Virus record (IMG/VR): IMGVR_UViG_2910649936_000002
Location: 2,713 to 66,712 of that record
Source of the DNA: a virus
Taxonomy: Duplodnaviria > Heunggongvirae > Uroviricota > Caudoviricetes
Reading direction: 5' to 3' (one strand)
Length of the DNA stretch: 64,000 bases
The notes below the pieces were generated by a model. The model did no database searches and was not told the DNA's origin. It worked only from the letters and a program-made list of their open reading frames with translations. The position numbers and the translations under genes are program-made. Of this stretch, positions 1,155 through 49,094 are shown one piece after another. Within the stretch, counting starts at the first letter, position 1, and every line of letters begins with the position of its first letter.

Positions 1155-1691
1155 TCATTTAGAATCCCATAATACTATTTTTCCCTTTGATAACGATTTT
1201 TGTACATCTATGACACGTTGATTTGTACTTCCAGCCCAGGGGTAATTCAAATCAAACTTGTCTTTCTCATACATACCGTCCACTAAAACATCTGCTCTTT
1301 TCATAATAGACTGTCTTAATGCACTAGTTTCCGTTAAACGATCAACTGAACAATTGGAGAATAATTGTTCAAAAGTGAAGCCTGTGTATATCCATATTGT
1401 TTTTTCAGGAAAATATTTTTTGATTTTATCACATAGCGAAAAGATTGTTGTTAGATTTGATTCATGAAGTGGATCTCCGCCAGTAAATGTAATACCTGAA
1501 ATATAATCTTTGGAAAGCTCCTTAAATAATTCTTCTTCCGCTTCCTTATCAAATTCAATTCCACTTTTAATATCCCATGTTTGTGGATTTTGACATTCAT
1601 CGCAATGATGTTCACATCCAGAGCACCATAAACATACTCTGAGTCCAGAACCATTTAACATATCATCTGTAGTTATATTATGATAATTCAC
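1155..1691 (-). CDS. nrdG: Anaerobic ribonucleotide reductase activating protein (radical SAM)
   Basis: GLRVCLWCSGCEHHCDECQN matches the NrdG CxxxCxxC radical-SAM cluster motif. It sits immediately downstream of nrdD. Confidence 0.85.
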   Translation of the reverse strand: MNYHNITTDDMLNGSGLRVCLWCSGCEHHCDECQNPQTWDIKSGIEFDKEAEEELFKELSKDYISGITFTGGDPLHESNLTTIFSLCDKIKKYFPEKTIWIYTGFTFEQLFSNCSVDRLTETSALRQSIMKRADVLVDGMYEKDKFDLNYPWAGSTNQRVIDVQKSLSKGKIVLWDSK

Positions 1692-1705: not shown

Positions 1706-4700
1706 CTACATAGATTTTCTATCTCTAATTTCCGCATTTTTAGCTTCATTATATCTAGTATCTCCATGTACTCTTGTAAACCCTAAGTATCCATTCATCC
1801 TATCGATTTTAGTAATATCTTTACTTCCACAAACGGGACATTCGCTCATATTTAATTCTTCATGTCCGCAATGCTCACAATATGCAAGTGAAAGATTTAC
1901 ACCCTCATAAAAACCTTTTTTCATAGCTCTACGAATCAATGTTACTACAGCTTCTTTATTATAATTTACAGGATAACGACAATATTGAATTTTCCCACCA
2001 TTAAAGTAATTCCAGAATCTTTCTTCATAGTCTTGTTTTTCTATTGGAGTAATATCTTCCGATACATGGCAATGAAATGAATTTGATACGTATTCTCTAT
2101 CAGATACATTTTCAATAATTCCATATTGTTTTCTGAATTGTTGTACTTGCAATCCGCATAAGCTCTCAGCAGGCGTTCCGTAAATTGCATATAACAATTT
2201 ATCTTCTTCTTTGAACTGATTGATTTTCTTATTTATATATTTCATTACTTCAAGAGCAAATTCACCATCTTCAATAATGGATTTCCCGTTATATAGTTCT
2301 TGAAGTTCATTTAACGCGGTAATACCAAAGGATAATGTCATTGGTTTGAGGATGGATTTAATTTTATCTGTTGGTTTTAATGTTCCTCCATATAATCCAC
2401 CTTCACAAAACGCAACCGGATTTACAGAAGCTTTTATTTCTCCAATATAATCATATGTTCTTTTATGAAGATTACGGATCATTTCAAGATAATAATCCAG
2501 AACTTCCCAAAAATCTTTAGACTCATTTCTTGATTTTGCAAGAATCATCGGCAAATGTAGGCTAACAACGCCTAAGTTAAATCTACCTTCAAATACCGCT
2601 TTATCATTTTCATCCGCCGACTCCATTCCGCCCCTTTCATACCACGGAGAAAGAAATGCTCTGCAATTGTGAGAATAAACACCACTAACTTCAAAATGGC
2701 TACTATCTGTTTCGACATCATAGCTATAGTCATTTTTTTGAACTTTATTCACACTTACTACTGTTGAAATCTGATGATTTCTTTCTGAAAAGCTTTCAGT
2801 ATAATTATTACGTTTTTTCTCACAAGCAATGTATTCAATAAGTTTATTATCTGGATAAAATTCTATTCTATATCTAATAAGAGTTGGGTTATTTGAATTA
2901 TAATGGTTATAATATACTTTTGCAGGCATTCCCAGAGATTGCGCAAGAGCCATTTGTTGTAATGCAAGTTCTTTATTTGTAGATCTAATTTGTACAACAG
3001 ACCCACCGTGTGAATTCGGGTTAATATATCCATCTGCATCAATCATACCAGCAAGAAATGCATATTTACTTTCATTATTCCAGGAAAACACTTCATTAGG
3101 AATATGCCTATTCTTTTTATTTATTCCTCCGAACATACTAGTAAAATAATTAATGGCATACTGAAGATTTGATTTGTCATCTGCAATAGTACATATATCT
3201 TTATAATTCCCTTTACTTCCTCTATTTTGATTTACTATTTTTGAGTCTAATGAAAAATATTTTTTCATCGTAGATATATATTTTTCTGCAATTTCGTTTT
3301 CACCATTTTCTGCAATTGATATAAAAACATGATTATTTTGATAGCATCCATCACAAAGCACTACGCCTAACAACCAAGCTTTATCGGTATTGAATATAAT
3401 GTTTTCTTGATTATATTGTTCTGAATTTATATATATATTATCGTTGCAATTTAATTCGCAAACTTCTTTTGTAATTCCAGAACATGTGGTTATTTTATGA
3501 TCTGATGTGCAAAGTAGTCTTCGCCCGTTTGATAATTGAACATCTACCCATTCATCTGATAAATTACGAATAATCTTTTTTGTATTTACAAATCCATTTT
3601 TCGTGTCATATATCAAAACATCTTTTAATTCCATGTACAAATGTGGTTGACCTACTATTTGCTGTTTTACTTCAAAATGGTCAGTAAGCCTATTCCACAT
3701 ACGTTCGAAAGATTCCACATATAGTTTATCATTAAATTGATATGTTATTACTTCTTTGCCATCAACGCATCCCATTGGACTAACTACCTCGCCATATTTC
3801 TTGTACATACTCGGCACGTATCCTTCACCCGTAAGGGAAAGCCAGTCTGGGTACATAGTTTTCATGCTACACTCAACCCCGGCATTAAACACATCTTCGT
3901 TAATGCAACCTTTACCGTGCAAATTTTCATCATATAAAAACACTAACTTTGGAAATAAAACTGGTTTTTTAAAGCCCTTTTTTCCCTGTCCTTCTTTATG
4001 CACATTTAAAAATGTAATTGAAGCCATCTTTCCAAACTTACTTGTATCAAGACCAAATGTCATTGTAACGAAGGGATAGTCCCCTCTGGAACTGCCAACC
4101 GTGTTTAACTTATATTCAATTCCTTGCCACCCCTGTTCAAAATCTCTTTGGACTTTATTCGTAGCATACTCATTAGCAAGTTTTTCTATCGATACATCAT
4201 CGCATTTATTTTTTCTTGTTATTTCTAAATATTCCTTTTTATAACTCTCAAAGCTCTTTTTGGCATACGGTACTAAAATCGTATCAACTCTTGGAACTGT
4301 AAATCCTCCGTATTGTTGTGCGGCGGTTGAAAGAATAATATCACCCATAACATCAAATGCAGTGTCAAGTGAATTCGGCTCATTATACCATACGTTACCC
4401 ATTTCAAAGCCATCTTTCATCACTTCCCCAACTCGGAACAGACAGCAATTAAACGTGTCTCTTCTAGCAGCCATATCATGCACATATATATATCCGTCAT
4501 TGCATGCTTGCTTTTCATCCGTTGTCATAAAGAATTTCTGATACAATGCTTTATTTAAAACATTAAATACAAGACTTCGTTTTGTAGCTACTAAAGCAGA
4601 ATCAGTATTGGCATTGTCTTTATCACCTATATACATAATAGATTGACTTTTTTCATATACATCATCCATCATTTTTACAAAATCCAATTTATAATTTCTG

Positions 4701-4960
4701 TATTCTTGATATGATTTTCCTACCTCTGGATACATATTAAGCAATGTTTGCTCTACTACATTATGTACAAAACCAATCGGAACTTCCTCATCATCAAAAT
4801 TTTCAGCTTCTATTTCTTCATAAACTCTATTACATATAATTGCATAATCATGATCTGTCAAGGTTATCAATGCTCTTTTTGCAGCTTTTGTCACGGCATT
4901 AATTATCTTTTGCTCATCATAATCTTGCAGCGTATTATCCTTCTTAATAACTTTTAGCAA
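1706..4960 (-). CDS. nrdD: Anaerobic ribonucleoside-triphosphate reductase NrdD, interrupted by a LAGLIDADG intein
   Basis: N-terminal ATP cone (VIKKDNTLQDYDEQKIINAV). C-terminal Zn ribbon CEHCGHEELNMSECPVCGS and glycyl-radical region MNGYLGFTRVHG. Likely TTG start preceded by AGGAGG. An approximately 368-aa insertion lies between SPMG|C and VYSHN|C. Confidence 0.9.
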   Translation of the reverse strand: MLKVIKKDNTLQDYDEQKIINAVTKAAKRALITLTDHDYAIICNRVYEEIEAENFDDEEVPIGFVHNVVEQTLLNMYPEVGKSYQEYRNYKLDFVKMMDDVYEKSQSIMYIGDKDNANTDSALVATKRSLVFNVLNKALYQKFFMTTDEKQACNDGYIYVHDMAARRDTFNCCLFRVGEVMKDGFEMGNVWYNEPNSLDTAFDVMGDIILSTAAQQYGGFTVPRVDTILVPYAKKSFESYKKEYLEITRKNKCDDVSIEKLANEYATNKVQRDFEQGWQGIEYKLNTVGSSRGDYPFVTMTFGLDTSKFGKMASITFLNVHKEGQGKKGFKKPVLFPKLVFLYDENLHGKGCINEDVFNAGVECSMKTMYPDWLSLTGEGYVPSMYKKYGEVVSPMGCVDGKEVITYQFNDKLYVESFERMWNRLTDHFEVKQQIVGQPHLYMELKDVLIYDTKNGFVNTKKIIRNLSDEWVDVQLSNGRRLLCTSDHKITTCSGITKEVCELNCNDNIYINSEQYNQENIIFNTDKAWLLGVVLCDGCYQNNHVFISIAENGENEIAEKYISTMKKYFSLDSKIVNQNRGSKGNYKDICTIADDKSNLQYAINYFTSMFGGINKKNRHIPNEVFSWNNESKYAFLAGMIDADGYINPNSHGGSVVQIRSTNKELALQQMALAQSLGMPAKVYYNHYNSNNPTLIRYRIEFYPDNKLIEYIACEKKRNNYTESFSERNHQISTVVSVNKVQKNDYSYDVETDSSHFEVSGVYSHNCRAFLSPWYERGGMESADENDKAVFEGRFNLGVVSLHLPMILAKSRNESKDFWEVLDYYLEMIRNLHKRTYDYIGEIKASVNPVAFCEGGLYGGTLKPTDKIKSILKPMTLSFGITALNELQELYNGKSIIEDGEFALEVMKYINKKINQFKEEDKLLYAIYGTPAESLCGLQVQQFRKQYGIIENVSDREYVSNSFHCHVSEDITPIEKQDYEERFWNYFNGGKIQYCRYPVNYNKEAVVTLIRRAMKKGFYEGVNLSLAYCEHCGHEELNMSECPVCGSKDITKIDRMNGYLGFTRVHGDTRYNEAKNAEIRDRKSM
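2666..3769 (-). mobile_element. Intein with LAGLIDADG homing-endonuclease domain inside nrdD
   Basis: Begins CVDGKEVITY and ends VYSHN followed by +1 Cys. Two LAGLIDADG-type motifs (LLGVVLCDGC, LAGMIDADGYI). The host sequence flanking it is contiguous NrdD. Confidence 0.75.
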
Positions 4961-4998: not shown

Positions 4999-5697
4999 TT
5001 ATTCTTTCTGATATACCATTGAATTCAAGTAAATGAGTTCCTTGTACAAATCAATCCATGATATGCAACGTATATATCCATATTCTTTATTCCATGGATA
5101 TTCTTCTCCAAAAACAAATTTATAAGTCGCATTACTTGTTTTCAAATTATTCGCACAATCATCTATAAAAATACCGTCTGTCATGTCTACACATGATTTA
5201 TCTTTATGTTTATCTAAATCAACACCAATAAATTTAATATCCTTACTAATATGGTTATAAATCCATTCACTCTTTAAATTTAAATTAGGGGTATGACCGT
5301 GAGATACTACATAGACATCAAAATCATACATAAGTAACCACAATAATGATTCTGCATTTTCCATGAATTTGAGATGATTGAAAAAACGCGGTGTGTTGAA
5401 ATAAAAATCGAATATTTCTGACGAGGCACATTTACATTCTTCAAATGACCAGGAATTTATTTCAGATGGTAGAACTTTTTTGAACCCAGAATATTTTAGA
5501 AAATCTTCATTATATAAATCTACAATAGCAGTAATAGTATCAACAATAACACCATCAAAATCTAAGAACAATTTTGGTTTTACGATGATATCACTCCTTT
5601 CCCAGTTCATTCTTGACCCATTCACATACTTTATCCACAGACTCATCAAAAGGTCTATCATTTCGTAGATGATAGTGAAAAGTATGTCTATTTTCAT
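4999..5697 (-). CDS. HAD-superfamily 5'(3')-deoxyribonucleotidase-like hydrolase
   Basis: HAD motif I FLDFDGVIVD. The size and pattern fit the NT5C-like nucleotidase family. The real start is probably the internal MNWERS. Confidence 0.5.
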   Translation of the reverse strand: MKIDILFTIIYEMIDLLMSLWIKYVNGSRMNWERSDIIVKPKLFLDFDGVIVDTITAIVDLYNEDFLKYSGFKKVLPSEINSWSFEECKCASSEIFDFYFNTPRFFNHLKFMENAESLLWLLMYDFDVYVVSHGHTPNLNLKSEWIYNHISKDIKFIGVDLDKHKDKSCVDMTDGIFIDDCANNLKTSNATYKFVFGEEYPWNKEYGYIRCISWIDLYKELIYLNSMVYQKE

Positions 5698-6157
5698 ATT
5701 CTGTAAATTGTAAATTTTCGTCTACATATCGCCTTTTAAAATCTTTAATATCATCTCCACGTTTTTTTGCTCTTTCTTCAGTCAATTTAATTGGTGTGCG
5801 AATATAAATTTCAATAAATTTATATCGGTCGCCACACTTAACTTTCAAATTATCCAAACCCATAGGATCTATTACATACACATCAGACTTATCCAACATA
5901 TTAAATGTTGTAAAATATTTATATCCGTTGATTTCCGTATAAGCAACAATATCATTTTTGTATTGTTTTACTTCTTTTTCAGTAATAAAAATGTGATCTG
6001 CTCCACTTTTTTCCGATTTACGTTGTGGTCGTGTTGTATATGACATAACTGATATTAGGTTTAACCTTTTACAAACTTCTTTTGCAATACTAGACTTCCC
6101 AGATGCGGTACGCCCAAGAACCAAAAATTTAATTGGTTTGCTCACTGAATTCACCAT
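5591..6157 (-). CDS. Guanylate kinase-like P-loop nucleoside monophosphate kinase
   Basis: Walker A LGRTASGKSS. SYTTRPQRKSEKSGADHIFI matches the guanylate kinase signature S-x-TTR-x-x-R-x-x-E-x-x-G-x-D/H-Y/I-F-F/I. YTEINGYKYFTT resembles the Gmk AEVFGNYYGTS block. Confidence 0.6.
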   Translation of the reverse strand: MVNSVSKPIKFLVLGRTASGKSSIAKEVCKRLNLISVMSYTTRPQRKSEKSGADHIFITEKEVKQYKNDIVAYTEINGYKYFTTFNMLDKSDVYVIDPMGLDNLKVKCGDRYKFIEIYIRTPIKLTEERAKKRGDDIKDFKRRYVDENLQFTEYENRHTFHYHLRNDRPFDESVDKVCEWVKNELGKE

Positions 6158-38321: not shown

Positions 38322-39488
38322 TTAACTATTATGTCTAAGCAGATATTCCCTGCTTACGTTTTTAAAACTCTGTTGTCCATATAAATCACGATATACAAAT
38401 CCTTCTCTCCTTACTTTGGGATTGATCTTGCTAAATCCATCTGCTTCCAACTTTATCTCTTCCATTGTTTTAGGAAGATAATAATTGGTATCAATAATTG
38501 GAACTGTCTTAAATTCATATAATTTACAAATGTACTCCATTAATGCGTTATCAATACGAACTCCATCAATAACAATATTGAAGACATATAAGTCATTTTC
38601 TTTTAACTTATATGGATTTCCTTGTACATTGCCAACACCTTCCCCCTGTATTACAACACGATTATAATTATTTTTAATTGCAATCTCTTTTAATTTGTTT
38701 TCAATATCATACTTGTCAGAAAGCTCCCAATAAATATTTGATTCATGATAGCATTCCTGATTGCGATCTGCTTGGCGCACATTCCGAGAACACACGATAT
38801 ATTCAAACTTATCCTTCCCTTTCTTTAGTCTATTCACGGCAAATGTACAACTTGTGCCATCTAATTTTTCTGTCTTTACCCACGGTTCTTCAGACTGTAA
38901 ATAAAATGGACAATTTTCAATTCGATTTTCATCTGTCTTTTTTATCCATTCTGGGAACTTTTTAGGATTATCTTTTTTACGACTACCAAAGAAAAGAAAT
39001 AGAATTTTTCTTCCAGATTTATACTTCATCATTTTTTTAATCACTGGATTCTTAAACAGTTCCTTATGTCTTACTGCCATAGACTTGTATTTTGCTTCAG
39101 GATCAACTTTATTGGATTTCCTTCTGACATCTTCTAAGGAAGAATATATAATTTTCAAATCTGTTGTTACATCTGTTCCTATTGGTTTATCTAATAATTC
39201 TGGAAATGATGTAATAGGAAGTGCCAATCCCTGACTGATAACCTTAAATTTGCCAAGTTTCATGGTCTTTACTTTGTAATGCTTCGATTTCAAAAAACTG
39301 AATCTTTCATCACTTTCAGGACACTTGCTATCAATTTCAATATAAACAGCCTTATCATCCGGCTTAAATTCGCCTTTCTTTGCGATACATACCCAACCTA
39401 ATACACCAATTAATTCAATGTTATCTGCACCTTCAATCGGTTTTACCCATTCAATTTTTTCAATATGTGCTAATGCTCTTTCAGCCAT
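38322..39488 (-). CDS. ATP-dependent RNA ligase-like nucleotidyltransferase (Rnl family)
   Basis: Motif I TEKLDGTSC (KxDG). Motif IV VIQGEGVG. Motif V-like ENDLYVFNIV. An N-terminal OB-like extension. Confidence 0.5.
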   Translation of the reverse strand: MAERALAHIEKIEWVKPIEGADNIELIGVLGWVCIAKKGEFKPDDKAVYIEIDSKCPESDERFSFLKSKHYKVKTMKLGKFKVISQGLALPITSFPELLDKPIGTDVTTDLKIIYSSLEDVRRKSNKVDPEAKYKSMAVRHKELFKNPVIKKMMKYKSGRKILFLFFGSRKKDNPKKFPEWIKKTDENRIENCPFYLQSEEPWVKTEKLDGTSCTFAVNRLKKGKDKFEYIVCSRNVRQADRNQECYHESNIYWELSDKYDIENKLKEIAIKNNYNRVVIQGEGVGNVQGNPYKLKENDLYVFNIVIDGVRIDNALMEYICKLYEFKTVPIIDTNYYLPKTMEEIKLEADGFSKINPKVRREGFVYRDLYGQQSFKNVSREYLLRHNS

Positions 39489-39527: not shown

Positions 39528-42086
39528 TTATATATTCTCTGTAGGCACACTCATTTTTTTACCAATTATTTCTACTACCGGAACCGTCACACCATTCCCT
39601 GCCTGTTTATACAATTGACTGTCACTATTCACAAACGCTGCGCGTTCAAAATAATCATCTGTCCATCCTTGCAGGCGGAAACATTCGCGAGGCGTTAAGC
39701 GGCGGATTGCTATATAGCACTGGTATTTTTCGTACCAAACGGCGTAACAGATATCTCCATTCGGAAGCTGAATATAGATTCCATCACCGTAGTCACCATG
39801 TGTATCACATTTCAATGCAAATAGATTGTCCTTTTGCACCGAATCAATCGTGTTTGAACATCCATCTGCTCTTACTTCGTGTTCAAGAAATGTATGCCTA
39901 CTGACTTTTAATTTCCCTGATTCATAATCTTTTCTTATTTTCTTCCCATACTCATTTCTTGTAGTCCTCAGACACCCCAAAGGTGATATAGCTACGCCAT
40001 GCCTATCCTGTGCCGTCAGCGTAAACATCGGTTCTCCATTTTCTTTAAATCTACGTCCATTCTGGCGTTTTTCTGCTCTATCTGGTGTGAGGACCGGGAT
40101 CGCAACCTTCGGCTCATTCCCTGAATGTCCGCAACCAATAATAGTTCTTGAAATGCTACCATTCCCATGAACAACTTTGTGTTGATTATAATTGTTGCCT
40201 GGCAATTCAAAGTCTTCGCTTATTTTTATCCCCACACTCGGCTCTCTGCCACCGCCCTGCATAGTTCCTAATGCAGGACTTATTCCGTCTTTGTCGTAAA
40301 CTCTGTAAGCATTTGGATTTTTCCTTTTACTTTCCATCATTCCTATCTGGCGAATACTATTTTCTCCATCCGCTCCCGTGACAGGAAGTATTTTTGCTCT
40401 ACCGAATCTTCTAAGATGTCCGACAGTGTATATCCGCTCCCGGTGCTGCGGGACGTACCACTCGCTATGTATATTTTGCCATTCGATATCATACCCAAGT
40501 CTGTCCAATTCAGAGAGGATTGACAGATAGTCGAGTCCTCTGTTGCTAGAAAGCATTCCTTTAACATTTTCATAGATAAGCCATTCAGGTCTGTTTTCTT
40601 CTTTTTGTTCTTCCAGCAGTCTAAAAATTTCTCGTATAAGGCTTGATCTGTCACCTTCAAGCCCTGCTCGTTTTCCGGCGATGGAGAAGTCCTGACAGTT
40701 GTGGACTCCCATATTGTTGGCTGTGTAGCTGTTGTCATTTTCTACCTCCATGTTGTACACAATTTCTTTTCTTTTTGGATTATATTCAATATTTTTTACT
40801 GGTTGCCATAAACACCCATCAATAAAATAAGATAGGCTTTTTATGCTATTCGGTCTGAAAATAATCCGCCATGTATCTTTCTGATTTACAATGCGATTTT
40901 CTATAATATGCTGTTTTAGCTTCTCTGTGTAATAAATGCTATATCCAACATGATGCACTTTAGAAACGCATTCGCCCAATTGATATGCAAGTTTTTTACT
41001 TATAGTCGTCGCTTTCCATACGCCGCATGAGTAACTTCCATCTCCGCTTAAATATCCATTAAGGAAATACTTTAAATGATCGGTGTCCAAATCCATAATA
41101 AACTGTGGAATTGTTTTATTCTCTGCGCCACGTCCGCATTTCAAACACAAAGAAAATAACCTATTGTCTTTTATAATATATTTTGTAACTGATTTTCCAA
41201 TAGATATATGCATCTTGAACGATTTACTACGAGATTTAAACTCATCTTCCTTTCCGTCCCCTATGCAGAAAATAACTCTTCTATCACTCGATGGTCTGTC
41301 ATTCCTTTTACTGTCTCTTAAATATCCATCAGCAACATACCTACCAAGAATCCAACACTCATCTTCTGTTAAATCATAAATATTCTTATTGTTGTTATTG
41401 ACAGTAAACTGAATAAGTTCATTTCCATCAAATTTTTGTACTTCTTTCCAATACGGATCGGAAATTTTTATTTCATATTTTCGTAGTTCATTATTCCATG
41501 TTTTTATTTTGTCTCTTACATAAAACCTATGATTCCCAGTCACTTCTGTTATCGGACTTCCTTGCACTTTTAGAGTATATATTCCCCTTTTGACATTAAC
41601 CATTGGTTTTATAACACGCTGCCATCTATTCTTATGAGTGAGAACCATATCGCCGCTTTGGATTTCTTCTATCGGTATTTTTCCCCTATGAGTGGTGATT
41701 AATGTCCCTTTTACAAAACAAGGCGCTCCGAAGCACCAGCAGTCTACTGCCGGAAGATCTTTGACTCGTACTGCTCTAATGTCATTTGCGTACCATTCTC
41801 CATTACGGTATTCCTCCTTTAAAATTTCTTTTTGTCTTTTCTTTAATGGTAATGTCTTTAAATATTCTCTCTGTTCATCGGTTATCAAGTGCATAGATGT
41901 GTAACTTGCCGTTGCGAACTTATCCCACTCGCAAAATCCAACGCATTCATGTCCTGCCAGTTCCATTCCACGCCGGAAACCGCCGATTCCGGCAAAAAAG
42001 TCTATAAATTTTAATTTCTTTTTGTTACTGTTGGAATAATATATGTTATCTCCTCCTCCATTCCTCATCAAATTCTGATTATTCAT
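39528..42086 (-). CDS. DNA (cytosine-5)-methyltransferase interrupted by a LAGLIDADG intein at the catalytic PC motif
   Basis: Motif I IDFFAGIGGF. Motif IV split as FGAP | intein | CQDFSIAGK. ENVKGM (VI), QHRERIY (VIII), GNGVTVPV (X). Confidence 0.85.
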   Translation of the reverse strand: MNNQNLMRNGGGDNIYYSNSNKKKLKFIDFFAGIGGFRRGMELAGHECVGFCEWDKFATASYTSMHLITDEQREYLKTLPLKKRQKEILKEEYRNGEWYANDIRAVRVKDLPAVDCWCFGAPCFVKGTLITTHRGKIPIEEIQSGDMVLTHKNRWQRVIKPMVNVKRGIYTLKVQGSPITEVTGNHRFYVRDKIKTWNNELRKYEIKISDPYWKEVQKFDGNELIQFTVNNNNKNIYDLTEDECWILGRYVADGYLRDSKRNDRPSSDRRVIFCIGDGKEDEFKSRSKSFKMHISIGKSVTKYIIKDNRLFSLCLKCGRGAENKTIPQFIMDLDTDHLKYFLNGYLSGDGSYSCGVWKATTISKKLAYQLGECVSKVHHVGYSIYYTEKLKQHIIENRIVNQKDTWRIIFRPNSIKSLSYFIDGCLWQPVKNIEYNPKRKEIVYNMEVENDNSYTANNMGVHNCQDFSIAGKRAGLEGDRSSLIREIFRLLEEQKEENRPEWLIYENVKGMLSSNRGLDYLSILSELDRLGYDIEWQNIHSEWYVPQHRERIYTVGHLRRFGRAKILPVTGADGENSIRQIGMMESKRKNPNAYRVYDKDGISPALGTMQGGGREPSVGIKISEDFELPGNNYNQHKVVHGNGSISRTIIGCGHSGNEPKVAIPVLTPDRAEKRQNGRRFKENGEPMFTLTAQDRHGVAISPLGCLRTTRNEYGKKIRKDYESGKLKVSRHTFLEHEVRADGCSNTIDSVQKDNLFALKCDTHGDYGDGIYIQLPNGDICYAVWYEKYQCYIAIRRLTPRECFRLQGWTDDYFERAAFVNSDSQLYKQAGNGVTVPVVEIIGKKMSVPTENI
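40698..41720 (-). mobile_element. Intein with LAGLIDADG endonuclease inserted immediately before the catalytic Cys of the C5-MTase
   Basis: Starts CFVKGTLITTHRGK and ends GVHN with +1 Cys, which is the PCQ catalytic cysteine. LAGLIDADG motifs ILGRYVADGYL and FLNGYLSGDGSY. Confidence 0.75.
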
Positions 42087-42255: not shown

Positions 42256-42810
42256 CTATGTTATTTTAAAATCATACAATGAACGTTCATAAACATTTAA
42301 CTTTTCAATTATTAAATCTTTGGGTAATAAATTCCTACAGAAGTAGGCTGAAGCAAATGGACTTCCCTTTGCAGGTGTACCCATATTTTTGCTATTATGA
42401 TATGATATTCTTTTGTCAAAACTAAGTAGTTGTATACCTTGTTTAAAATATTTATACCTTGAAATACCTTGTAACGAATTTAGTGGCAGTAATATTGCAA
42501 AAGGTTTTTTAAAAAAATATAATCTCTTTAATATTTTATCTTTATTAGAAAATGGTGGATTACTTACAATAATATCCCATTTATCAGGTGCATAATTTAA
42601 AAAGTCTTTTCCTTCTAACAAAGAACTCCTAATCACACTATAGCCTTTTTCTTTTAATCGATTATAATAAGCACTCCATTCCTCATCAAACGGACACCAT
42701 ATTATTTTATCTTTTGGAATATATTTAATAATGGCATCGACAGCATAATATGGCGTATAAAGCTCATTATCACTTCTATCAGAAGAAAGATATCCTATAT
42801 TAAGTCCCAT
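42256..42810 (-). CDS. Small putative N6-adenine methyltransferase (gamma-class motif order)
   Basis: ELYTPYYAV (motif X-like), IIWCPFDEEWSAYY (motif I-like), DIIVSNPPFS (motif IV NPPF). Only 184 aa, so it may need a partner or be truncated. Confidence 0.45.
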   Translation of the reverse strand: MGLNIGYLSSDRSDNELYTPYYAVDAIIKYIPKDKIIWCPFDEEWSAYYNRLKEKGYSVIRSSLLEGKDFLNYAPDKWDIIVSNPPFSNKDKILKRLYFFKKPFAILLPLNSLQGISRYKYFKQGIQLLSFDKRISYHNSKNMGTPAKGSPFASAYFCRNLLPKDLIIEKLNVYERSLYDFKIT

Positions 42811-43247: not shown

Positions 43248-43577
43248 TTAACTTTTCATTGTATTTTCTTCAATGAATTTATATCTCATTACAATATATC
43301 TACATGTCTTGTTAATATTGTTTTTCATATTAAGAACCTTGGTTTTCTTTTCAGCGTATTCATATTCCTTATAAAATCCGCCTCTGCTATTCATAATAAT
43401 ATCACCTGTTGCAAGATCCTTCACTGCATATAGATATCTTACATTTTTGTCTGCATATGTGTTACTTTCACACACCTGTTTGCACAGTAATTGATTCTCG
43501 TTTTCGAGCAATGCAATTCTTTCAAGTAAATATTCTTCCACAGAACTATAGTGTTGTGTCTTAATAAGGTCTTCCAT
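43248..43577 (-). CDS. Hypothetical protein
   Basis: 109-aa ORF. Confidence 0.3.
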   Translation of the reverse strand: MEDLIKTQHYSSVEEYLLERIALLENENQLLCKQVCESNTYADKNVRYLYAVKDLATGDIIMNSRGGFYKEYEYAEKKTKVLNMKNNINKTCRYIVMRYKFIEENTMKS

Positions 43578-43702
43578 ATTTTCTTCTCCATTTTTGTATC
43601 ATATTTTCTCGTAACGCAAAACCACCATGTAGTTTACAGTAATTACTAGATATCCTACATTCCAAAAGAGCCAGTTTCATTCTAGTAGAAATGTTTGTGT
43701 TT

Positions 43703-44368
43703 TCACCCATCATGTCTCCAATCATTTTGTACACTTTTAATAGATATCCCAGATTCTTCTATCTTAATCCATTCATCTAAAGTTAAAGGAATATAATTTG
43801 AATACATACAAAAACAATTAATCATATTAATCGGTGCCGGGGACGGATTATCAGAACTTCTACTTATTCTCGGAAAACCTCTTACAAACTCCTTATAATG
43901 TTCTACGCCAACTACATCTGGAGTCTTGTGGATATGGCCATGAAGCATATATGTTTTTGGATTTCCATTTTTATCTCGTCGAAATTGTCCATTATAGCAC
44001 ATCACTGGGTAATGGCAGCATATAACCTTTCTTCCATTATCATTCAACTCCATATAATAGTCGATCCGTTCAAACCTATCTTTATTAAATTCTCTTTTTA
44101 GCACAGCTTTATCATGATTTCCAATACACAACCATAAGCGACCGTTCAACTTATCTATCAACCTATTCGTTTCTTCTACATTACCAATTGATAGATCTCC
44201 CAAAATAATGACTTCTTCTTTTTTCCTTACTCTTGAATTCCATTGTTGAAGCATGAATTCATTCATTTCTTCCATGCTTTTAAACCCTCGCTTATCCATT
44301 CTAGTATTCATGTTAGTATGAAAGAAATGATTGTCTGCAATATAATATCTCATAAATAACAACCTCAT
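43703..44368 (-). CDS. Calcineurin-like metallophosphoesterase
   Basis: Metallophosphoesterase motifs DNHFFH (DxH), ILGDLSIGN (GD), GNHD, HGHIH. Confidence 0.7.
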   Translation of the reverse strand: MRLLFMRYYIADNHFFHTNMNTRMDKRGFKSMEEMNEFMLQQWNSRVRKKEEVIILGDLSIGNVEETNRLIDKLNGRLWLCIGNHDKAVLKREFNKDRFERIDYYMELNDNGRKVICCHYPVMCYNGQFRRDKNGNPKTYMLHGHIHKTPDVVGVEHYKEFVRGFPRISRSSDNPSPAPINMINCFCMYSNYIPLTLDEWIKIEESGISIKSVQNDWRHDG

Positions 44369-45111
44369 AAGATTCTAATAATCTGTTCATATAAACAAAT
44401 TGATTTTTCAGAATCAAAATTTTGATTTACATGCATATGTCCAAAGAACCATTTTCTATAATCAATAGCTTCTTTAATCTTTTGTAGATAGTCTGTTAAT
44501 CTATCTGTCTGATATATTGTCGGATTACTATCCATCATTCTTAAAAGTGATGTACATGGAGAATGTGTCACAATAAAATCAACTTTATTATTTGATTTCT
44601 CCAGATTATCCCATCCATTTTGCATTTCCTCTTCGCTTGGCAGTTCTCTTTCCCACCATGACACATGATTAATTCTAAACTGCTTACTATAGTCATATCG
44701 CCATTTTTTAATACGTGGATCGCCTATTTCTAAAACGCCATCTCGAATATCATGGCTACTTGCACCACCAAAAGTGAAAAATGTTTTCCCGGATATGTCA
44801 TAAATCTTACCTCTCATCAAATGGATTACTGACGGTCTGAGAAAATGTACCTTCCCGTTATGCCATTCGGATACAGGGAGATTATCAAGTATGTCGTAAT
44901 TTTCGTGATTTCCGTCCACAAATAATGTAGTAAATAGTTTATCTTCTAGCCAATCCAGATTATATTTCTCTCTCTTAGAATCATCCCAGATACCGAAGTC
45001 ACCGCAGATAATCACGTAATCGTCTTTTGTCATTTCATCTTGTTCTGGGAATGCTCTCTTATTTAGCCTCCCCATCCAGTCTCCATGTGTGTCACCCGTT
45101 ATATAAACCAT
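44365..45111 (-). CDS. PPP-family (lambda-phosphatase/ApaH-like) metallophosphoesterase
   Basis: GDTHGD (GDxHG), CGDFGIWDD (GDxxDRG-like), DGNHENY (GNHE), FGHMHV. Its stop overlaps the next gene's start. Confidence 0.7.
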   Translation of the reverse strand: MVYITGDTHGDWMGRLNKRAFPEQDEMTKDDYVIICGDFGIWDDSKREKYNLDWLEDKLFTTLFVDGNHENYDILDNLPVSEWHNGKVHFLRPSVIHLMRGKIYDISGKTFFTFGGASSHDIRDGVLEIGDPRIKKWRYDYSKQFRINHVSWWERELPSEEEMQNGWDNLEKSNNKVDFIVTHSPCTSLLRMMDSNPTIYQTDRLTDYLQKIKEAIDYRKWFFGHMHVNQNFDSEKSICLYEQIIRIL

Positions 45112-45119
45112 GTCTTTAT

Positions 45120-45329
45120 CTAAGCCTCTCTGTCCTCTTTAATTTTCTTCGTTGCAAGAATATATTCTCTGTATTCATCATAGCCTTTAAACTTAATATA
45201 TTTACATTCATTTACATCAAAACAATTTTCACCCACATACATGCAAATTACTTTAAAGTGTATCACTACAAAATATTTCTTTATCCTTCGCAAAGATAAT
45301 CGGATGCCCATAATATCCATTATGGGCAT
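45120..45329 (-). CDS. Hypothetical protein
   Basis: 69-aa ORF. Confidence 0.25.
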   Translation of the reverse strand: MPIMDIMGIRLSLRRIKKYFVVIHFKVICMYVGENCFDVNECKYIKFKGYDEYREYILATKKIKEDREA

Positions 45330-45723
45330 TATATACGGCTATCTGAAGAATCCCTTTTGTAGTCACAAAATCAACAAATTGTATGCCACCACAATCATCA
45401 TAGTAGCCGCTTTTATTAACAACTTCTTTATTTAGTTCCTTATCAGTTAAATTTACCTCTAACAGATCCGCGCCAACAAAATCTTGCTCATTATCATTAG
45501 AATAGAAATATCCCCAATGTTCACAACAATTCTGTCCATTCGAAATAAGGATATTGAATTCATGCTTATCAGTGGTAATTCTATATCCATCGTATTCTTC
45601 GTATGTACATAAGGCACTAGGCATTTCCATGATACCTAATCGTCCACCAGAACCATTTAATGTCCCGGTATTAGTAAGACAAACATTTGTGACTTCTTCA
45701 ATTTTTAATATTTTACCTAACAT
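45253..45723 (-). CDS. Hypothetical protein
   Basis: 156-aa ORF. Confidence 0.3.
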   Translation of the reverse strand: MLGKILKIEEVTNVCLTNTGTLNGSGGRLGIMEMPSALCTYEEYDGYRITTDKHEFNILISNGQNCCEHWGYFYSNDNEQDFVGADLLEVNLTDKELNKEVVNKSGYYDDCGGIQFVDFVTTKGILQIAVYNAHNGYYGHPIIFAKDKEIFCSDTL

Positions 45724-45846
45724 ATTTACTCCTTTTCAAATGAAATCAACTCCATAGATATTTAAATCTATACGAACAGTCCTAACTCACACCATTTCTT
45801 GATTACTTTTGAATTTCAGATTTTATAACTGGTATCTCCAAGACAA

Positions 45847-47040
45847 TCAATACTTCATTTTTTCTCTCTCCCGTACTTTCTCACGTGTTTCCCCATAACT
45901 AAAATACGTCTTATCAAAATCATAATTCATACCCCATACATCATCATTCAAGTATTCATTCATGTGTGTTATAGCAAGTGAACAGTTTGTATAAGGATAT
46001 GGCTGTTCTGCTATTAATTGAAAATCTTCTAATACTCTTTGTATTAATCTTTCAATATCAATGAATCCATATCTCAATGTTCCTTGATGTGGATTTGGGA
46101 CATTTGTATAATCAACCATATCTCTATTAATATCTGCTTTTTCACACTCATCCTCCAGACGTCCAACTCCATGACGTGTTATATATGTTCTTGTGACATA
46201 GCATGTTTCTATATTAATCTTCTCTTTTGGAAAAGTATTTCCAATAATTTCTAACGGATTTTTGACACCTGTGTTACTTGGCGTAAGATGGGGATAATAT
46301 GTTCCATTATTCTGGTCAAGAAGCAATCCCTGTCCATTTTCAAAGATAATATTGGCATAATGGCATAATATTTCATCTCCGCACTTATTTATACAGTCCT
46401 TCATGAAATAAATATCATCTATATATCTGTCAATTAATCCTATACTATAAACAATTTCATCCCATTCCGATTTGTTGATATCTATATTTTCTTCTTTTAG
46501 CTTTTCTAAAAAGTATTCATCTCTAATTCTATATAATAGATTTCGTATATCATCGCTACCTAATACGAATAACTGTGATAGACAAAGATTATATTTTGGA
46601 TAATGACATCGTTTTAAAGTTTCATAAATCCCAACACCACAACTACCGTGTCTATCTTCAGACCGCTTCTCTTCAATCATTTGATTTAAAATCATATCAA
46701 ATGGTGTGGAAATCTTACATAAAGGATGCACATATACTTTTGGAATGAATCCGATTTCATTAAGCTCTTTCCACTCTTGGCAAAATATCATAGGATTTAA
46801 AATAAAATATTTAGAAAGATATGTATGAGCATTATTAAATATTCCAGAGCCAAAATGATGGAAAACATGCCTTATATTATCAGGAGTTGTTACTGTATGA
46901 CCTCTTTGCGCTTCTCCATTGCTACACACAACAATGCAATTTTCATTTTGCATAGCTGCCTGGTTAGAAAAATAATCTGTCATAAATCCCTTTCCCTCGT
47001 CGCCAAAATTAGCACCAATAACAATTTTTATATTCGTCAT
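45847..47040 (-). CDS. Adenylosuccinate synthetase homolog (PurA/PurZ family)
   Basis: P-loop GDEGKGF (PurA GDEGKGK). NGEAQRGHT (PurA GG-x-NAGHT). GSCGVGIYET (PurA GTTGRGIGPAYEDK). YVTRTYITRHGVG (PurA TTGRRRRTGW region). 397 aa, which is shorter than bacterial PurA. Confidence 0.75.
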   Translation of the reverse strand: MTNIKIVIGANFGDEGKGFMTDYFSNQAAMQNENCIVVCSNGEAQRGHTVTTPDNIRHVFHHFGSGIFNNAHTYLSKYFILNPMIFCQEWKELNEIGFIPKVYVHPLCKISTPFDMILNQMIEEKRSEDRHGSCGVGIYETLKRCHYPKYNLCLSQLFVLGSDDIRNLLYRIRDEYFLEKLKEENIDINKSEWDEIVYSIGLIDRYIDDIYFMKDCINKCGDEILCHYANIIFENGQGLLLDQNNGTYYPHLTPSNTGVKNPLEIIGNTFPKEKINIETCYVTRTYITRHGVGRLEDECEKADINRDMVDYTNVPNPHQGTLRYGFIDIERLIQRVLEDFQLIAEQPYPYTNCSLAITHMNEYLNDDVWGMNYDFDKTYFSYGETREKVREREKMKY

Positions 47041-47059
47041 ACAACAACACCCCTTCTAT

Positions 47060-47938
47060 TTACCATGCGATACAATTTTCTTCCTTAATATCTAAAACAG
47101 TATTTGAATCGGATGTATCAGAAGCAGAGATAATAATATCAATAATCTCATCAGCTATATTATTTAGATTAACTCTACGAAAATGCTTATCATCCAAATA
47201 CTCCTTGAATGACGCTTCGATTCCCTCACTGTCCCAACCAGACCGATGATTAACATCCAAATGATAGATATCAAATTTTTGAATCGTCTCTTCATATAGA
47301 TCTTTTGTTTCAACATCTGATTGTAGTTTATCACCTGTTGAGGCTTCAAGTCCTGAACGGGTTCCTCTTATCGGAAGGTATGGATTCAATCTCTCATCCC
47401 CCATAGTGATAATAATTCCACGTTTTCCTCTGTTCCAGCAATCAAGTTTTGTATGTCTTGCTCCAAAATACCACGCAGCAGTGTATGATTCGTAATTATT
47501 ACCACCACCACCAAATTCAAAATATAACTTGTCTAACTGTTCAGCAATGCGAATATCTGATTCAAATTGCGACGCCTGTATTGGTGAAGCGTCATAAGCC
47601 AAATCACCAATTCCCATAATCATAAATTCAACATCTGTTACTTTCTTGTATAATTCTGTCATTATAGTATTTAATTTTTTTGCAACTTCTACCGCTGTCT
47701 GTCCCATACTGCCCGTAACATCCAGTGCCAAAATCACAGGGAGAGTATTAGGATGCTCGTCTGAATCACAGCACTCCCTAATCACATTGCATGGATCTAA
47801 AGCAACGTCTAAATGTCTTGATTTAAACATTTCTTGATTAGAATAAGATCCGGTTATTTCTCCAAGCGAATCAACTGACATTCCCTTCGTTACCGAATAT
47901 GTAGCATATGCTTCCCTTGTCCATGTTCCACTTCCCAT
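47060..47938 (-). CDS. von Willebrand factor A (vWA) domain protein
   Basis: MIDAS-type ILALDVTGSMG (DxSGS-like) with downstream T and D residues. Confidence 0.65.
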   Translation of the reverse strand: MGSGTWTREAYATYSVTKGMSVDSLGEITGSYSNQEMFKSRHLDVALDPCNVIRECCDSDEHPNTLPVILALDVTGSMGQTAVEVAKKLNTIMTELYKKVTDVEFMIMGIGDLAYDASPIQASQFESDIRIAEQLDKLYFEFGGGGNNYESYTAAWYFGARHTKLDCWNRGKRGIIITMGDERLNPYLPIRGTRSGLEASTGDKLQSDVETKDLYEETIQKFDIYHLDVNHRSGWDSEGIEASFKEYLDDKHFRRVNLNNIADEIIDIIISASDTSDSNTVLDIKEENCIAW

Positions 47939-47941
47939 AAA

Positions 47942-48538
47942 TTATTTATCCTCACTTTCTCCGATTAATTCTTCATCATCGTCATCATCGTCCATATCGA
48001 AAATACCATCAAAAAGTCCACCCATGTTACCACCCATCATCATAAATGGTAACACTGTATTTAAGCTTCCCGATGTATTAGAACCAGTATTGTCTTTCAT
48101 CATTTCAGAAAGCATCATATACTGCATAATTTTATTCGTGCCTTTTTTACCTTTAACAATGTCGTTTCCAAACATTGATACAATCTTTCCATAAAAATAT
48201 GTATTACCCATAAATACATGACGTTCTGGAAGAATTGTTTCAACCGTCGAATCTTCATAATTGATCACTGTCAATTTATTTTTTTCAGACTCAATCACAC
48301 ATTTCGGTTTGCCACTAACGAGAATAATGTCTCCTGGTTCTGCTTTGTTCGTAGGAATTACAAAGAAAAACTCTTCTCCAATATCAAAAGCAAAATTGTC
48401 ACAGTTAGTGAGTCTTCCCGTTTTCATGTTATAACTTTTGTATCCACCACTTGTCTTTACCGCAATACCTCCATTCATAGATATTTTGCACATTCCCGGC
48501 TGTACTTTTCCGAACATTTTGTTAAGCATTGTATTCAT
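47942..48538 (-). CDS. Hypothetical protein with Met/Gly-rich segment and poly-Asp C-terminus
   Basis: The C-terminus FMMMGGNMGGLFDGIFDMDDDDDDEELIGESEDK. A 3-nt gap separates it from the vWA gene, so the two are probably co-transcribed. Confidence 0.35.
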   Translation of the reverse strand: MNTMLNKMFGKVQPGMCKISMNGGIAVKTSGGYKSYNMKTGRLTNCDNFAFDIGEEFFFVIPTNKAEPGDIILVSGKPKCVIESEKNKLTVINYEDSTVETILPERHVFMGNTYFYGKIVSMFGNDIVKGKKGTNKIMQYMMLSEMMKDNTGSNTSGSLNTVLPFMMMGGNMGGLFDGIFDMDDDDDDEELIGESEDK

Positions 48539-48595
48539 GTTTTCTCTCCTTTTTATTTCTTATATTTATATATTCTCCGATGAAAGTAAAGTTTC

Positions 48596-48764
48596 ATTGC
48601 GCTTTATACTTCTTCGAAACTCCACATTTTTTACAGCGATATACTTTTGTATAATTGTTAGGATACCTTTTGTCTTTCGATGAATCCCACACAGTGTTCT
48701 CAAATATTAGTTCCCACTTATGTTTACAAAAGCAACTCCGTATGTAGCTAATTAGCCATCTCAT
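48596..48764 (-). CDS. Possible small Zn-ribbon ORF (about 56 aa)
   Basis: Hand translation MRWLISYIRSCFCKHKWELIFENTVWDSSKDKRYPNNYTKVYRCKKCGVSKKYKAQ after a GGAAGGAACAGG RBS. Coordinates are approximate. Not in the ORF table. Confidence 0.2.
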
Positions 48765-48780
48765 AAGTCCTGTTCCTTCC

Positions 48781-48969
48781 TTATTTATATTTTACAAACT
48801 TCGCCACATCATTAAGGTGGCATCTAAAGGCAAGTGTACCGTCTTCATCATATAAAGTTAGATAATTTGCTGTATCTTCGATTTCAACATTCTTAAAATA
48901 AAATTCTGGCGAATCTAATTCTTTACAAAATGATTTATGCAATGCCACATATATGTTCCACTTATTCAT
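48781..48969 (-). CDS. Hypothetical protein
   Basis: 62-aa ORF. Its ATG overlaps the stop of the upstream small ORF (ATGA). Confidence 0.35.
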   Translation of the reverse strand: MNKWNIYVALHKSFCKELDSPEFYFKNVEIEDTANYLTLYDEDGTLAFRCHLNDVAKFVKYK

Positions 48970-49094
48970 ATTTTATTGCCCTCCACCTTAACACCTTTCC
49001 GTTTCAGCCACTTCTCCGCGTTTTCCCGTTGCATTTGCTCTCCCTGCGCACGGATTAGCTTTATCGCCGCGGGCTTATTCTTTCGCTTCTTCAT
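48966..49094 (-). CDS. Possible small basic protein (42 aa) in a GC-rich stretch
   Basis: Hand translation MKKRKNKPAAIKLIRAQGEQMQRENAEKWLKRKGVKVEGNKI. ATGA overlap with the downstream gene. Its 3' end carries AAGGTGGAGG, the RBS for that gene. Local GC is about 50%. Confidence 0.35.
   Translation of the reverse strand: MKKRKNKPAAIKLIRAQGEQMQRENAEKWLKRKGVKVEGNKI

Follow-up and report, generated by a model that had tools for sequence, protein, structure and literature searches.

The best-described relatives of the element studied here are the canonical adenylosuccinate synthetase PurA (e.g., Escherichia coli 1ADE and Bacillus anthracis 4M9D) and its phage-encoded counterparts PurZ and PurZ0 (6FM1, 7ODX and 7VF6), which belong to the same superfamily and share its fold. 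Among 481 phage PurA homologues analyzed previously, 147 were PurZ or PurZ0, ~5 fell in the PurA clade and the rest were left unnamed as "other PurA homologs"; all 147 PurZ/PurZ0 proteins have Ser at the position of Asp13 of E. coli PurA (PMC12884076). With respect to operons, the closest comparison is with NARP1, NARP1-AP and NARP2 (Adps, Namat and Adpp; Nampt and Nmnat), small phage metabolic operons which rebuild a depleted adenine-containing metabolite. Here we describe a gene of the adenylosuccinate-synthetase superfamily in a 64,000-nucleotide stretch of viral DNA (positions 2,713 to 66,712 of the IMG/VR record IMGVR_UViG_2910649936_000002; hereafter the window), a phage-type region with a GC content of ~32% in which all genes lie on the minus strand. 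The gene is the last of a conserved three-gene cassette, and we conclude with high confidence that its family is a third lineage of the superfamily, distinct from PurZ and set in a cassette with a gene for a vWA-domain protein. The genes of the cassette are as follows.

45847..47040, minus strand: PurA-like enzyme of 397 amino acids, the last gene of the cassette; Pfam PF00709
47060..47938, minus strand: vWA/MIDAS-domain protein of 292 amino acids, phrog_2971, directly upstream of the PurA-like gene with a 19-nucleotide gap
47942..48538, minus strand: protein of 198 amino acids, the first gene of the cassette, with a 3-nucleotide gap to the vWA gene

The PurA-like protein matches the Pfam family Adenylsucc_synt (PF00709) with 112.8 bits (E = 2.2e-32), well past the gathering threshold of 27 bits, as well as PHROG 1211 (E = 1.7e-61). 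It contains the motifs GANFGDEGKGF, RGHT and TRTYITRHG, and the initial annotation of the window, which had read the open reading frame as a PurA homolog keeping the P-loop GDEGKGF and the GHT and TRxxxRHG blocks, was thus borne out. The frame is also, as had been pointed out, shorter than bacterial PurA, with no C-terminal insertion, as in PurZ and archaeal PurA. An AlphaFold2 model of the protein (predicted local distance difference test score of 86.6) has the full-length PurA fold, matching the PurA structure 4m9d in Foldseek with E = 1e-17 and a template-modeling score of ~0.63-0.66 over ~400 columns, while PurZ/PurZ0 structures were matched at E values of 1e-14 to 1e-12. A PDB search with the single sequence returned PurA only, and a profile built from 52 family sequences reached PurA at 3e-20, the short archaeal PurA at 3.5e-7, PurZ0 (7vf6) at 0.037 and PurZ (6fm1) at 0.098, with values on PurZ-type structures ranging from 0.04 to 0.17. 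Canonical PurA is therefore the best match of the protein in both sequence and structure.

It had been proposed that the enzyme is PurZ-like and makes 2-aminoadenylosuccinate from deoxyguanosine monophosphate (dGMP), that two neighboring metallophosphoesterases clear deoxyadenosine and deoxyguanosine triphosphates (dATP and dGTP), and that the phage has 2-aminoadenine DNA (Z-DNA). Several features are indeed shared with PurZ: the short length and missing insertion, Phe in place of Trp11 and Asn in place of Asp333 (both as in phiVC8 PurZ), the loss of R303 with its contact to the 2'-OH, and the lumping of the family with PurZ in PHROG 1211. Against this, the catalytic Asp13 is kept in the window protein (GDEGKG) and in 152/152 ungapped family sequences, whereas the position is Ser in the 147 published PurZ/PurZ0 proteins and in 6/6 of those aligned here (four PurZ and two PurZ0). 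The NCBIfam PurZ model NF038379 gives 32.7 bits versus a cutoff of 300, in a match limited to residues 4-97, and the family profile finds PurZ structures only at the marginal values given above. The loop tip with which PurZ contacts aspartate (PMC8342488), TTVT, is replaced by NPHQ in the window protein, a region for which the alignment is from MAFFT only. A tblastn search against 50,697 phage records reached PurZ-bearing phages only at E ~0.1. The enzymes also differ in that the central helical subdomain missing in PurZ is kept here, and in that His273, Gln301, Cys129 and Gln38 here stand against the Val, Thr, Thr and Asn common to PurZ and PurA, with no R143.

Gene content argues in the same direction. 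When 51 open reading frames of the window, which shows 64 kb of the prophage, were compared with Pfam (nearly all those that have at least 140 amino acids), none was DatZ, MazZ/DUF550, DUF5664, Dut or DutZ, DmtZ, DpoZ or PrimPol, and the replicative polymerase is of the DnaE type rather than DpoZ. PurZ and PurZ0 travel with DatZ, MazZ and DpoZ or with DutZ and DmtZ, whereas the partners here are a vWA protein and either a J-domain-kinase or the 198-amino-acid protein, and the phosphoesterases are not conserved partners. The window further encodes at least five DNA methyltransferases, an adenine-type MT-A70 among them, a dense set that speaks mildly for normal adenine in the phage DNA. Taken together, the 2-aminoadenine reading fails on Asp13, on the bit score, on the profile values and on the missing pathway genes; it appears largely refuted by the sequence, we consider it scarcely credible, and the cassette is outside any 2-aminoadenine pathway. 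From the broader suggestion of a non-canonical purine (2-aminoadenine/Z-like) or purine-salvage module, only the looser part, a role in purine nucleotide metabolism, survives as a possibility.

The protein is also not a canonical PurA. It scores 74.8 and 91.2 bits against the PurA equivalog models TIGR00184/NF002223, far below their cutoffs of 395-402, and the alignments stop near residue 300. The alignment and phylogeny that had been recommended for the frame thus place it outside bacterial PurA (91 bits versus 402; separate clade) as a non-canonical member. We mapped residues to E. coli PurA numbering through two alignments. D13, K16, H41, Q224 and T239 are retained together with the P-loop, while N38Q, T129C, V273H and T301Q are exchanged family-wide. 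The residue at position 301 is Gln (Gln319 of the window protein) in 155/157 sequences, the R303 position is Thr/Ser or variable, and no conserved basic residue is found at the R143 position (P, G, M, L, E, D or a gap). By comparison, N38, T129, V273, T301 and an Arg or Lys at 143 are present in all of the five PurA, four PurZ and two PurZ0 proteins compared. In Helicobacter pylori PurA, inosine monophosphate (IMP) is contacted by D12, N37, G119, T121, T230, the V264 backbone (O2'/O3'), R294 (O2') and R135* of the other subunit (PMC11571797), and these contacts correspond to the E. coli positions compared here (including N38, T129, T239, V273, R303 and R143*). R303 also contacts aspartate (PMC8342488).

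The guanine-specifying Asp333 is Asn361 in the window protein, but this position is Asn in 100, Asp in 51 and Lys in 5 family members, and therefore does not define the family; the guanine motif (N/T)KxD reads T-H-x-N in the window protein. Asn at this position is shared with ATP-using PurZ, for which N297/Q308 at the D333 position has been given as the explanation of its use of adenosine triphosphate (ATP) (PMC8342488). Ten residues (D14, K17, Q45, H48, C134, Q237, T253, H290, Q319 and R323 in the window protein) are each found in at least 151/157 family members from many phyla, which argues that the enzyme is active, is under strong constraint and has a pocket of its own, in which the base-activating half is kept and the ribose, 5'-phosphate and amine half rebuilt. 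Compared with canonical PurA, then, replacements affect the contacts to the ribose and to the 5'-phosphate, the loop that binds aspartate and the Arg supplied in trans by the other subunit, the guanine motif differs and the gene stands in an operon with a vWA gene, at an identity of ~23%; what is shared is the catalytic set Asp13, Lys16, His41, Gln224 and Thr239, suggesting that the two-step chemistry of phosphoryl transfer and amination is probably retained.

In a neighbor-joining tree of 21 sequences, which is distance-based and samples canonical PurA sparsely, the family was monophyletic in 100% of 300 bootstraps with both p-distance and capped Kimura distance, as was PurZ+PurZ0, while the monophyly of PurA was unstable (31-100%). 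Mean identity of the family is 23% to PurA, 18% to PurZ and 19.5% to PurZ0. The family matches the unnamed "other PurA homologs" of the earlier survey (PMC12884076). In GenBank, it is carried by 237 phage records, 202 of which are Bxz1-like mycobacteriophages, the others including Rhizobium RHph phages, Vibrio Va1-like phages and a 176-kb gut phage whose protein is 51% identical. At least 486 IMG/VR contigs, mostly of 100-215 kb, and at least 533 GTDB species genomes carry it as well, the latter spanning Bacillota, Bacteroidota, Alpha-, Beta- and Gammaproteobacteria, Acidobacteriota, Cyanobacteria/Melainabacteria, Chlorobiota, Planctomycetota, Bdellovibrionota and Patescibacteria. The lineage is phage- and prophage-borne. 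It should be noted that each scan contributed its best 80 loci to the comparisons below, and that these loci are related by descent, so that counts among them are not independent.

The two conserved partners of the PurA-like gene are the genes at 47060..47938 and 47942..48538, neither of which was named in the initial annotation, where the phosphoesterases had been cast in that role. The vWA protein has a Rossmann-like vWA fold with an intact MIDAS motif (D-x-S/T-x-S ... T ... D). Its gene adjoins the PurA-like gene in 85/87 viral loci, and when neighboring open reading frames of 156 loci were clustered without prior selection, vWA was by far the top family (141/156, always on the same strand, median gap of -18 nucleotides), the 15 apparent exceptions being mostly contig ends or misses in the calling of open reading frames. 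The window protein is homologous to the products of the genes directly upstream of the PurA-like gene in RHph_Y65 (E = 2e-42), Va1 (7e-58) and Bxz1 (gp248; 2e-41). Its N-terminus is conserved as MGxGxW, with Gly at position 2 in 142/145 vWA partners, a few partners begin with MS, and the model has low confidence at this end. PDB sequence searches with the vWA protein, the 198-amino-acid protein and the first metallophosphoesterase returned no match, and a Foldseek comparison of the vWA model with viral structures gave only weak, generic vWA matches.

The first gene of the cassette comes in two forms. In the 198-amino-acid protein, the N-terminal part is beta-rich, one segment is rich in Met and Gly, and the tail is acidic. 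The protein is encoded directly upstream of vWA in 83/156 loci, is represented by 651 sequences at E <= 1e-3 in an exhaustive search, and shows 70-83% identity to its counterparts in almost all of the gut-phage relatives, versus 48-60% for the PurA-like protein. It has no match in Pfam, PHROG, PADLOC or PDB, and jackhmmer found no diverged homologue among the open reading frames of divergent loci. The upstream proteins of the Rhizobium (263 amino acids) and Vibrio (237 amino acids) phages have a similar layout, with a non-significant BLAST E of ~1 against the window protein. Long proteins with the 198-amino-acid domain contain no further Pfam domain apart from one Nudix fusion, and their Cys-rich N-terminal extensions may be gene-calling read-through. 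This only informative fusion, the metagenomic protein P0338 (495 amino acids), has a NUDIX domain at residues 132-249 followed by the cassette domain at 291-486, and could likewise be a read-through.

The alternative first gene occupies the same position in 48 loci, mostly in diverse bacterial genomes and also as gp247 in Bxz1, and encodes ~335-376 amino acids with a J-domain containing an HPD motif and a protein-kinase-like domain (DnaJ 34 bits and Pkinase 35.6 bits, both over cutoffs). In the sequences inspected by eye, the catalytic-loop Asp of the kinase (the HRD aspartate) is missing, being Gly or Ala. Two loci show other upstream genes: in RHph_Y65, a small HIRAN-domain protein (L001:4655-4972; Pfam E = 2.7e-7) lies between the 263-amino-acid first gene and the vWA gene, and in a 170-kb gut-phage contig (L006) an RVT_1 reverse transcriptase (3211-4242) and a GmrSD_N protein (296-1708) lie just upstream of the cassette, adding to an impression of accessory or conflict genes. 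PADLOC, run on all cassette proteins and both metallophosphoesterases, gave no match for the PurA-like, vWA and 198-amino-acid proteins, generic kinase matches for Bxz1 gp247 and a partial PDC-S10 match for the first metallophosphoesterase.

The architecture recalls the TerY-P triads and MoxR-vWA pairs, in which a MIDAS vWA gene stands beside a kinase-like gene, as in the J-domain-kinase form here, and is paired with a P-loop protein that uses nucleoside triphosphates (NTPs); calcineurin-type phosphoesterases also lie near the cassette in the window. The likeness is architectural only. No PP2C and no MoxR AAA+ ATPase is seen here, and the NTP-using partner is a PurA-type enzyme instead of a chaperone ATPase; moreover, the TerY-P triad combines vWA with an active Ser/Thr kinase and PP2C, whereas the window cassette has no kinase gene and the kinase-like proteins of its relatives have Gly or Ala for the catalytic Asp. 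The HPD-containing J-domain of the 48 loci is shared with phage J-domain co-chaperones such as Rki of phage RB43 (PMC3486835) and implies recruitment of host DnaK. The J-domain here differs in that it shares a polypeptide with a kinase-like domain and is encoded together with vWA and PurA-like genes, and the window has the unrelated 198-amino-acid protein in its place.

Genes of nicotinamide adenine dinucleotide (NAD+) salvage enclose or flank the cassette in 26/87 viral loci (PncA, Adps-like, Namat-like, Macro and NadE). A nicotinamidase-like gene stands upstream, and genes resembling phosphoribosyl pyrophosphate synthetase (Adps-like) and NAMPT (Namat-like), together with Macro and NadE, stand downstream, a composition that is found in NARP1 and NARP1-AP, validated anti-defense operons. 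The NARP1-linked loci are one clade (L048-L075) together with L006/7 and L089, and in RHph_Y65 NARP2-like genes (a phosphoribosyltransferase and an NMNAT/Nudix gene) lie ~4 kb upstream of the cassette. In species-level genomes, an NrtR-family gene adjoins the cassette in 42/80 loci from many phyla, often divergently and just upstream; NUDIX and NrtR_WHD domains were found in 4/4 of the members tested. NrtR proteins are ADP-ribose-responsive regulators of NAD metabolism. These neighbors, the NrtR adjacency and the Nudix fusion are three independent observations that tie the cassette to NAD+/ADP-ribose metabolism, by a link that is recurrent and not obligatory. Compared with the NARP operons themselves, the cassette lies inside or beside them in ~4 lineages, yet its proteins are not homologous to NARP enzymes, the window has no NARP genes and NARP operons have no vWA or J-domain gene; the anti-defense role is validated for NARP1 and NARP1-AP, whereas the cassette is known here from its genes.

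Within the NARP1-like cluster, we also observed a Tpt1/KptA RNA 2'-phosphotransferase (Pfam E = 3e-47) beside the Macro gene, in L052 (10563-11102) and 15 related loci. Tpt1 yields ADP-ribose 1''-2'' cyclic phosphate and could therefore be a further, unrecognized part of extended NAD+ reconstitution operons.

Based on these data, we suggest that the PurA-like enzyme would phosphorylate the 6-oxo group of a hypoxanthine-type purine nucleotide in an NTP-dependent step, followed by displacement with an amine, because the catalytic set of PurA is retained. The NTP donor of the window enzyme is probably ATP, since the Asp333 position is Asn as in ATP-using PurZ. The nucleotide, the amine or both would differ from IMP and L-aspartate, or be bound differently, because V273H, T129C, N38Q and T301Q are family-wide and R303 and R143 are not conserved. 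The vWA partner may stand in for the second PurA protomer (R143*) or for the aspartate loop, or may feed the active site. As a whole, the cassette may serve nucleotide-pool rescue during infection, rebuilding adenine nucleotides, or an adenine-containing NAD+/ADP-ribose metabolite, from a deaminated (inosine) form, and would act alongside NAD+ reconstitution in counter-defense or metabolic takeover. The discoverers of NARP raise the rebuilding of ATP or deoxynucleoside triphosphates (dNTPs) as an open possibility. We hold this reading, a re-tooled purine C6-amination enzyme for nucleotide-pool rescue, tentatively; its basis is genomic association, and we would put it somewhat short of an even chance.

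A number of points weigh against it. The functional step is guilt by association, and neither PADLOC nor other curated families provide a functional label. The 64-kb window contains no NAD+ salvage, NARP or NrtR gene, 61/87 viral loci have no NAD+ salvage genes within 6 kb, and the NARP-linked loci amount to ~4 lineages whose counts are not independent. Rescue of adenylate leaves the need for a vWA protein and a J-domain-kinase or 198-amino-acid protein unexplained, and use of L-aspartate would require host PurB and would then leave the remodeled aspartate loop unexplained. Finally, positions 300-305 and 331-333 rest on MAFFT, as HMMER aligns the protein locally with PurA only up to about residue 300, despite which the AlphaFold2 model matches PurA over ~400 columns.

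Other explanations deserve consideration. The gene could be a plain auxiliary metabolic gene encoding a divergent but canonical synthetase (IMP with aspartate and guanosine triphosphate or ATP), which supplies an AT-rich phage with more adenosine monophosphate and has unrelated neighbors. The retained catalytic residues and PurA fold, the greater closeness of the family to PurA than to PurZ, and the richness of the phage in nucleotide-metabolism genes are all compatible with this. We nevertheless find it unlikely, as the scores fall far under the equivalog cutoffs and as R303 (2'-OH of IMP, aspartate), T301 (aspartate loop) and the trans-subunit R143 are replaced family-wide; moreover, near-obligate same-strand adjacency to vWA across phyla is not expected of a stand-alone enzyme, and the family is also found in GC-rich mycobacteriophages. 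Another candidate is a defense or abortive-infection module, in which a sensor or scaffold (the J-domain-pseudokinase or 198-amino-acid protein, with vWA) would control the PurA-like protein as an effector, which would either produce a toxic nucleotide or use up IMP, NTP or an amino acid. In favor of this, the cassette forms a self-contained unit of 3-4 genes in variable contexts with no other common neighbors, bacterial genomes carry it frequently, it comes with a regulator of its own, further conflict genes (PemK, Fic and GmrSD_N) are found in the window, which is most likely a prophage, and kinase-containing defense systems exist. However, the core proteins have no PADLOC match, the carriers include large virulent-type myoviruses of 150-207 kb (Bxz1-like, Va1 and RHph_Y65), and the cassette lies within anti-defense NARP1 operons, not in defense islands, which makes this explanation quite unlikely in our view.

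The same pocket could also be seen as that of a hypermodification enzyme making an N6-substituted (deoxy)adenine nucleotide other than adenylosuccinate for incorporation into phage DNA. A remodeled amine pocket with retained activation chemistry fits this, the loss of the 2'-OH-contacting R303 fits deoxynucleotides, and a 2026 preprint reports adenylosuccinate synthetase genes in predicted modified-base operons. It is set against the facts that the cassette is not accompanied by a dedicated polymerase, a dNTP-clearing enzyme or a glycosyl/amino-acid transferase, and that an NrtR regulator and NAD+ salvage neighbors do not fit. We also know of no DNA modification reported for the many sequenced cluster C mycobacteriophages, which we count against it, and we regard the idea as improbable. 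More improbable still is a protein-directed ligase, in which the alpha-amino group of the N-terminal Gly of the vWA protein would attack the 6-phosphoryl-purine to give a protein-nucleotide (N6-linked adenylate) conjugate, free aspartate being no longer used and the J-domain-kinase or 198-amino-acid protein serving as adaptor. The enzyme and vWA genes are adjacent and co-inherited, the partners keep Gly2 and the MGxGxW N-terminus, the Arg that holds the carboxylate of aspartate is missing, which would be anticipated for a nucleophile with no free alpha-carboxylate, and the aspartate site of PurA takes the glycine derivative hadacidin. Yet the proposal is purely inferential and has no precedent, the few partners starting with MS and the poorly modeled N-terminus speak against it, and the NAD+/NrtR association is left unexplained. 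If true, it would be a previously unknown post-translational modification in phages of many phyla, wired to ADP-ribose sensing through NrtR.

Every open reading frame named in the initial annotation is present on the minus strand where it had been placed, and those outside the cassette, together with a DUF7448 gene, are as follows.

43703..44368, minus strand: metallophosphoesterase 2, 221 amino acids, phrog_547; Pfam Metallophos_2 29.6 bits; neighbor outside the core module
44365..45111, minus strand: metallophosphoesterase 1, 248 amino acids, phrog_1649; Pfam Metallophos 41 bits; neighbor outside the core module
45253..45723, minus strand: DUF7448 protein; Pfam DUF7448 74 bits; neighbor outside the conserved module
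5591..6157, minus strand: Gmk-like kinase; Guanylate_kin 42 bits
4999..5697, minus strand: NT5C nucleotidase
1706..4960, minus strand: NrdD
1155..1691, minus strand: NrdG

The two metallophosphoesterases had been described as flanking the PurA homolog, but both are on one side, downstream in transcription, with the DUF7448 gene and gaps of 123 and 141 nucleotides between the pair and the PurA-like gene. Their frames share a 4-nucleotide overlap, which is compatible with the proposed translational coupling. The label "lambda-phosphatase/ApaH-like" found no backing, as the 248-amino-acid metallophosphoesterase 1 has no sequence relative in PDB; the nearest solved relative of metallophosphoesterase 2 is the uncharacterized Aquifex protein aq_1665 (1xm7, E = 6e-8). 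A functional tie to the PurA homolog is contradicted by their distribution, since homologues lie within 6 kb in only 21/87 and 5/87 related loci, and on the opposite side of the cassette, the former all from one clade and always 2.2-3.6 kb away. In addition, Streptomyces phages and those mycobacteriophages that do not belong to cluster C commonly carry homologues of metallophosphoesterase 1, and neither group is among the PurA-like matches. A role as analogues of DatZ/MazZ was therefore rejected: they are not conserved partners, the first has no PDB relative, and homologues of the first occur in phages that are not among the PurA-like matches. An RNA ligase is encoded ~4 kb away, and the pair might just as well heal RNA ends in a tRNA-repair pathway instead of acting on nucleotide pools. 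No DUF7448 homologue was found within 6 kb of the PurA-like gene in the other loci (0/87).

The Gmk-like kinase, HAD nucleotidase and NrdDG that had been brought into the same module are indeed encoded in the window, but 40 kb separate the Gmk-like gene, which belongs to an ordinary NrdDG/NT5C nucleotide cluster, from the PurA-like gene. The longest-frame calls of NT5C (4999-5697) and the Gmk-like gene (5591-6157) overlap by 107 nucleotides. The true NT5C start is probably further downstream, with the two genes abutting, because the Pfam match of NT5C begins at residue 43.

The vWA protein of the window is 100% identical to an annotated protein of Mediterraneibacter sp. NSJ-55 and an integrase gene is present, so that the window is most likely part of a large prophage of a gut Lachnospiraceae bacterium. 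A GmrSD_N protein (56880-57395), a PemK/MazF toxin (58964-59323), a tyrosine integrase (59973-60959) and a Fic/DOC protein (61559-62239) form a stretch that looks like the lysogeny or conflict-gene end of a prophage. Replication and repair genes include DnaE-type Pol III alpha, RecD2-like and DnaB-like helicases, RecJ, an NAD-dependent ligase, a SNF2 helicase and an RNA ligase; the last (38322-39488, PHA02142 OB and RNA_ligase) is accompanied in the window by an RlaP-type RNA-repair nucleotidyltransferase (27372-28400). The DNA methyltransferase genes, at least five in number, are at 30243-30800, 34860-35891, 36678-37478, 39528-42086 and 42256-42810 and comprise MT-A70, two N6_N4_Mtase, one C5 and one weak EcoRI-methylase-like match, a density that suggests heavy self-methylation as anti-restriction. 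Inteins are present in three minus-strand genes, NrdD (1706-4960), the RecD2-like helicase (9538-13164) and the C5 cytosine methyltransferase (39528-42086), with Intein_splicing or Hint domains in all three and LAGLIDADG homing-endonuclease domains in NrdD and the helicase as well; a DNA methyltransferase is an unusual host gene for an intein. An SPFH/Band 7 protein is encoded at 31562-32434, and in the NARP1-linked clade, 22 gut-phage loci have a homologue whose gene precedes the cassette by ~4.5 kb (including L070:847-1809). A promoter and terminator scan of 43400-49000 found no terminators, and promoter-like sites at or below chance level; operon boundaries can therefore not be drawn in this interval.

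The family described here is already visible in databases, often mislabeled as PurZ, and its members are part of the unnamed remainder in one paper (PMC12884076). In the searchable (non-paywalled) literature we found no description of its active-site signature, of the cassette of vWA with a J-domain-kinase or 198-amino-acid protein, or of the association with NrtR and NARP. PHROG 1211 and RefSeq label the whole family "2-aminooxy adenylosuccinate synthetase" (i.e., PurZ), a name from which Z-DNA would be wrongly expected in hundreds of phages, among them more than 200 mycobacteriophages of cluster C, and the Asp13/His273/Gln301 signature provides a simple way to separate the family from PurZ. 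The cassette is thus a widespread, uncharacterized module, found in at least 486 viral contigs and at least 533 species genomes from Bacillota to Acidobacteriota, Cyanobacteria and Patescibacteria. It offers a concrete candidate for the question posed by the discoverers of NARP, whether phages also rebuild ATP or other nucleotides which are destroyed or deaminated by defenses, and the culturable phages that carry it (Bxz1, Va1 and RHph_Y65) make this question of counter-defense directly testable.

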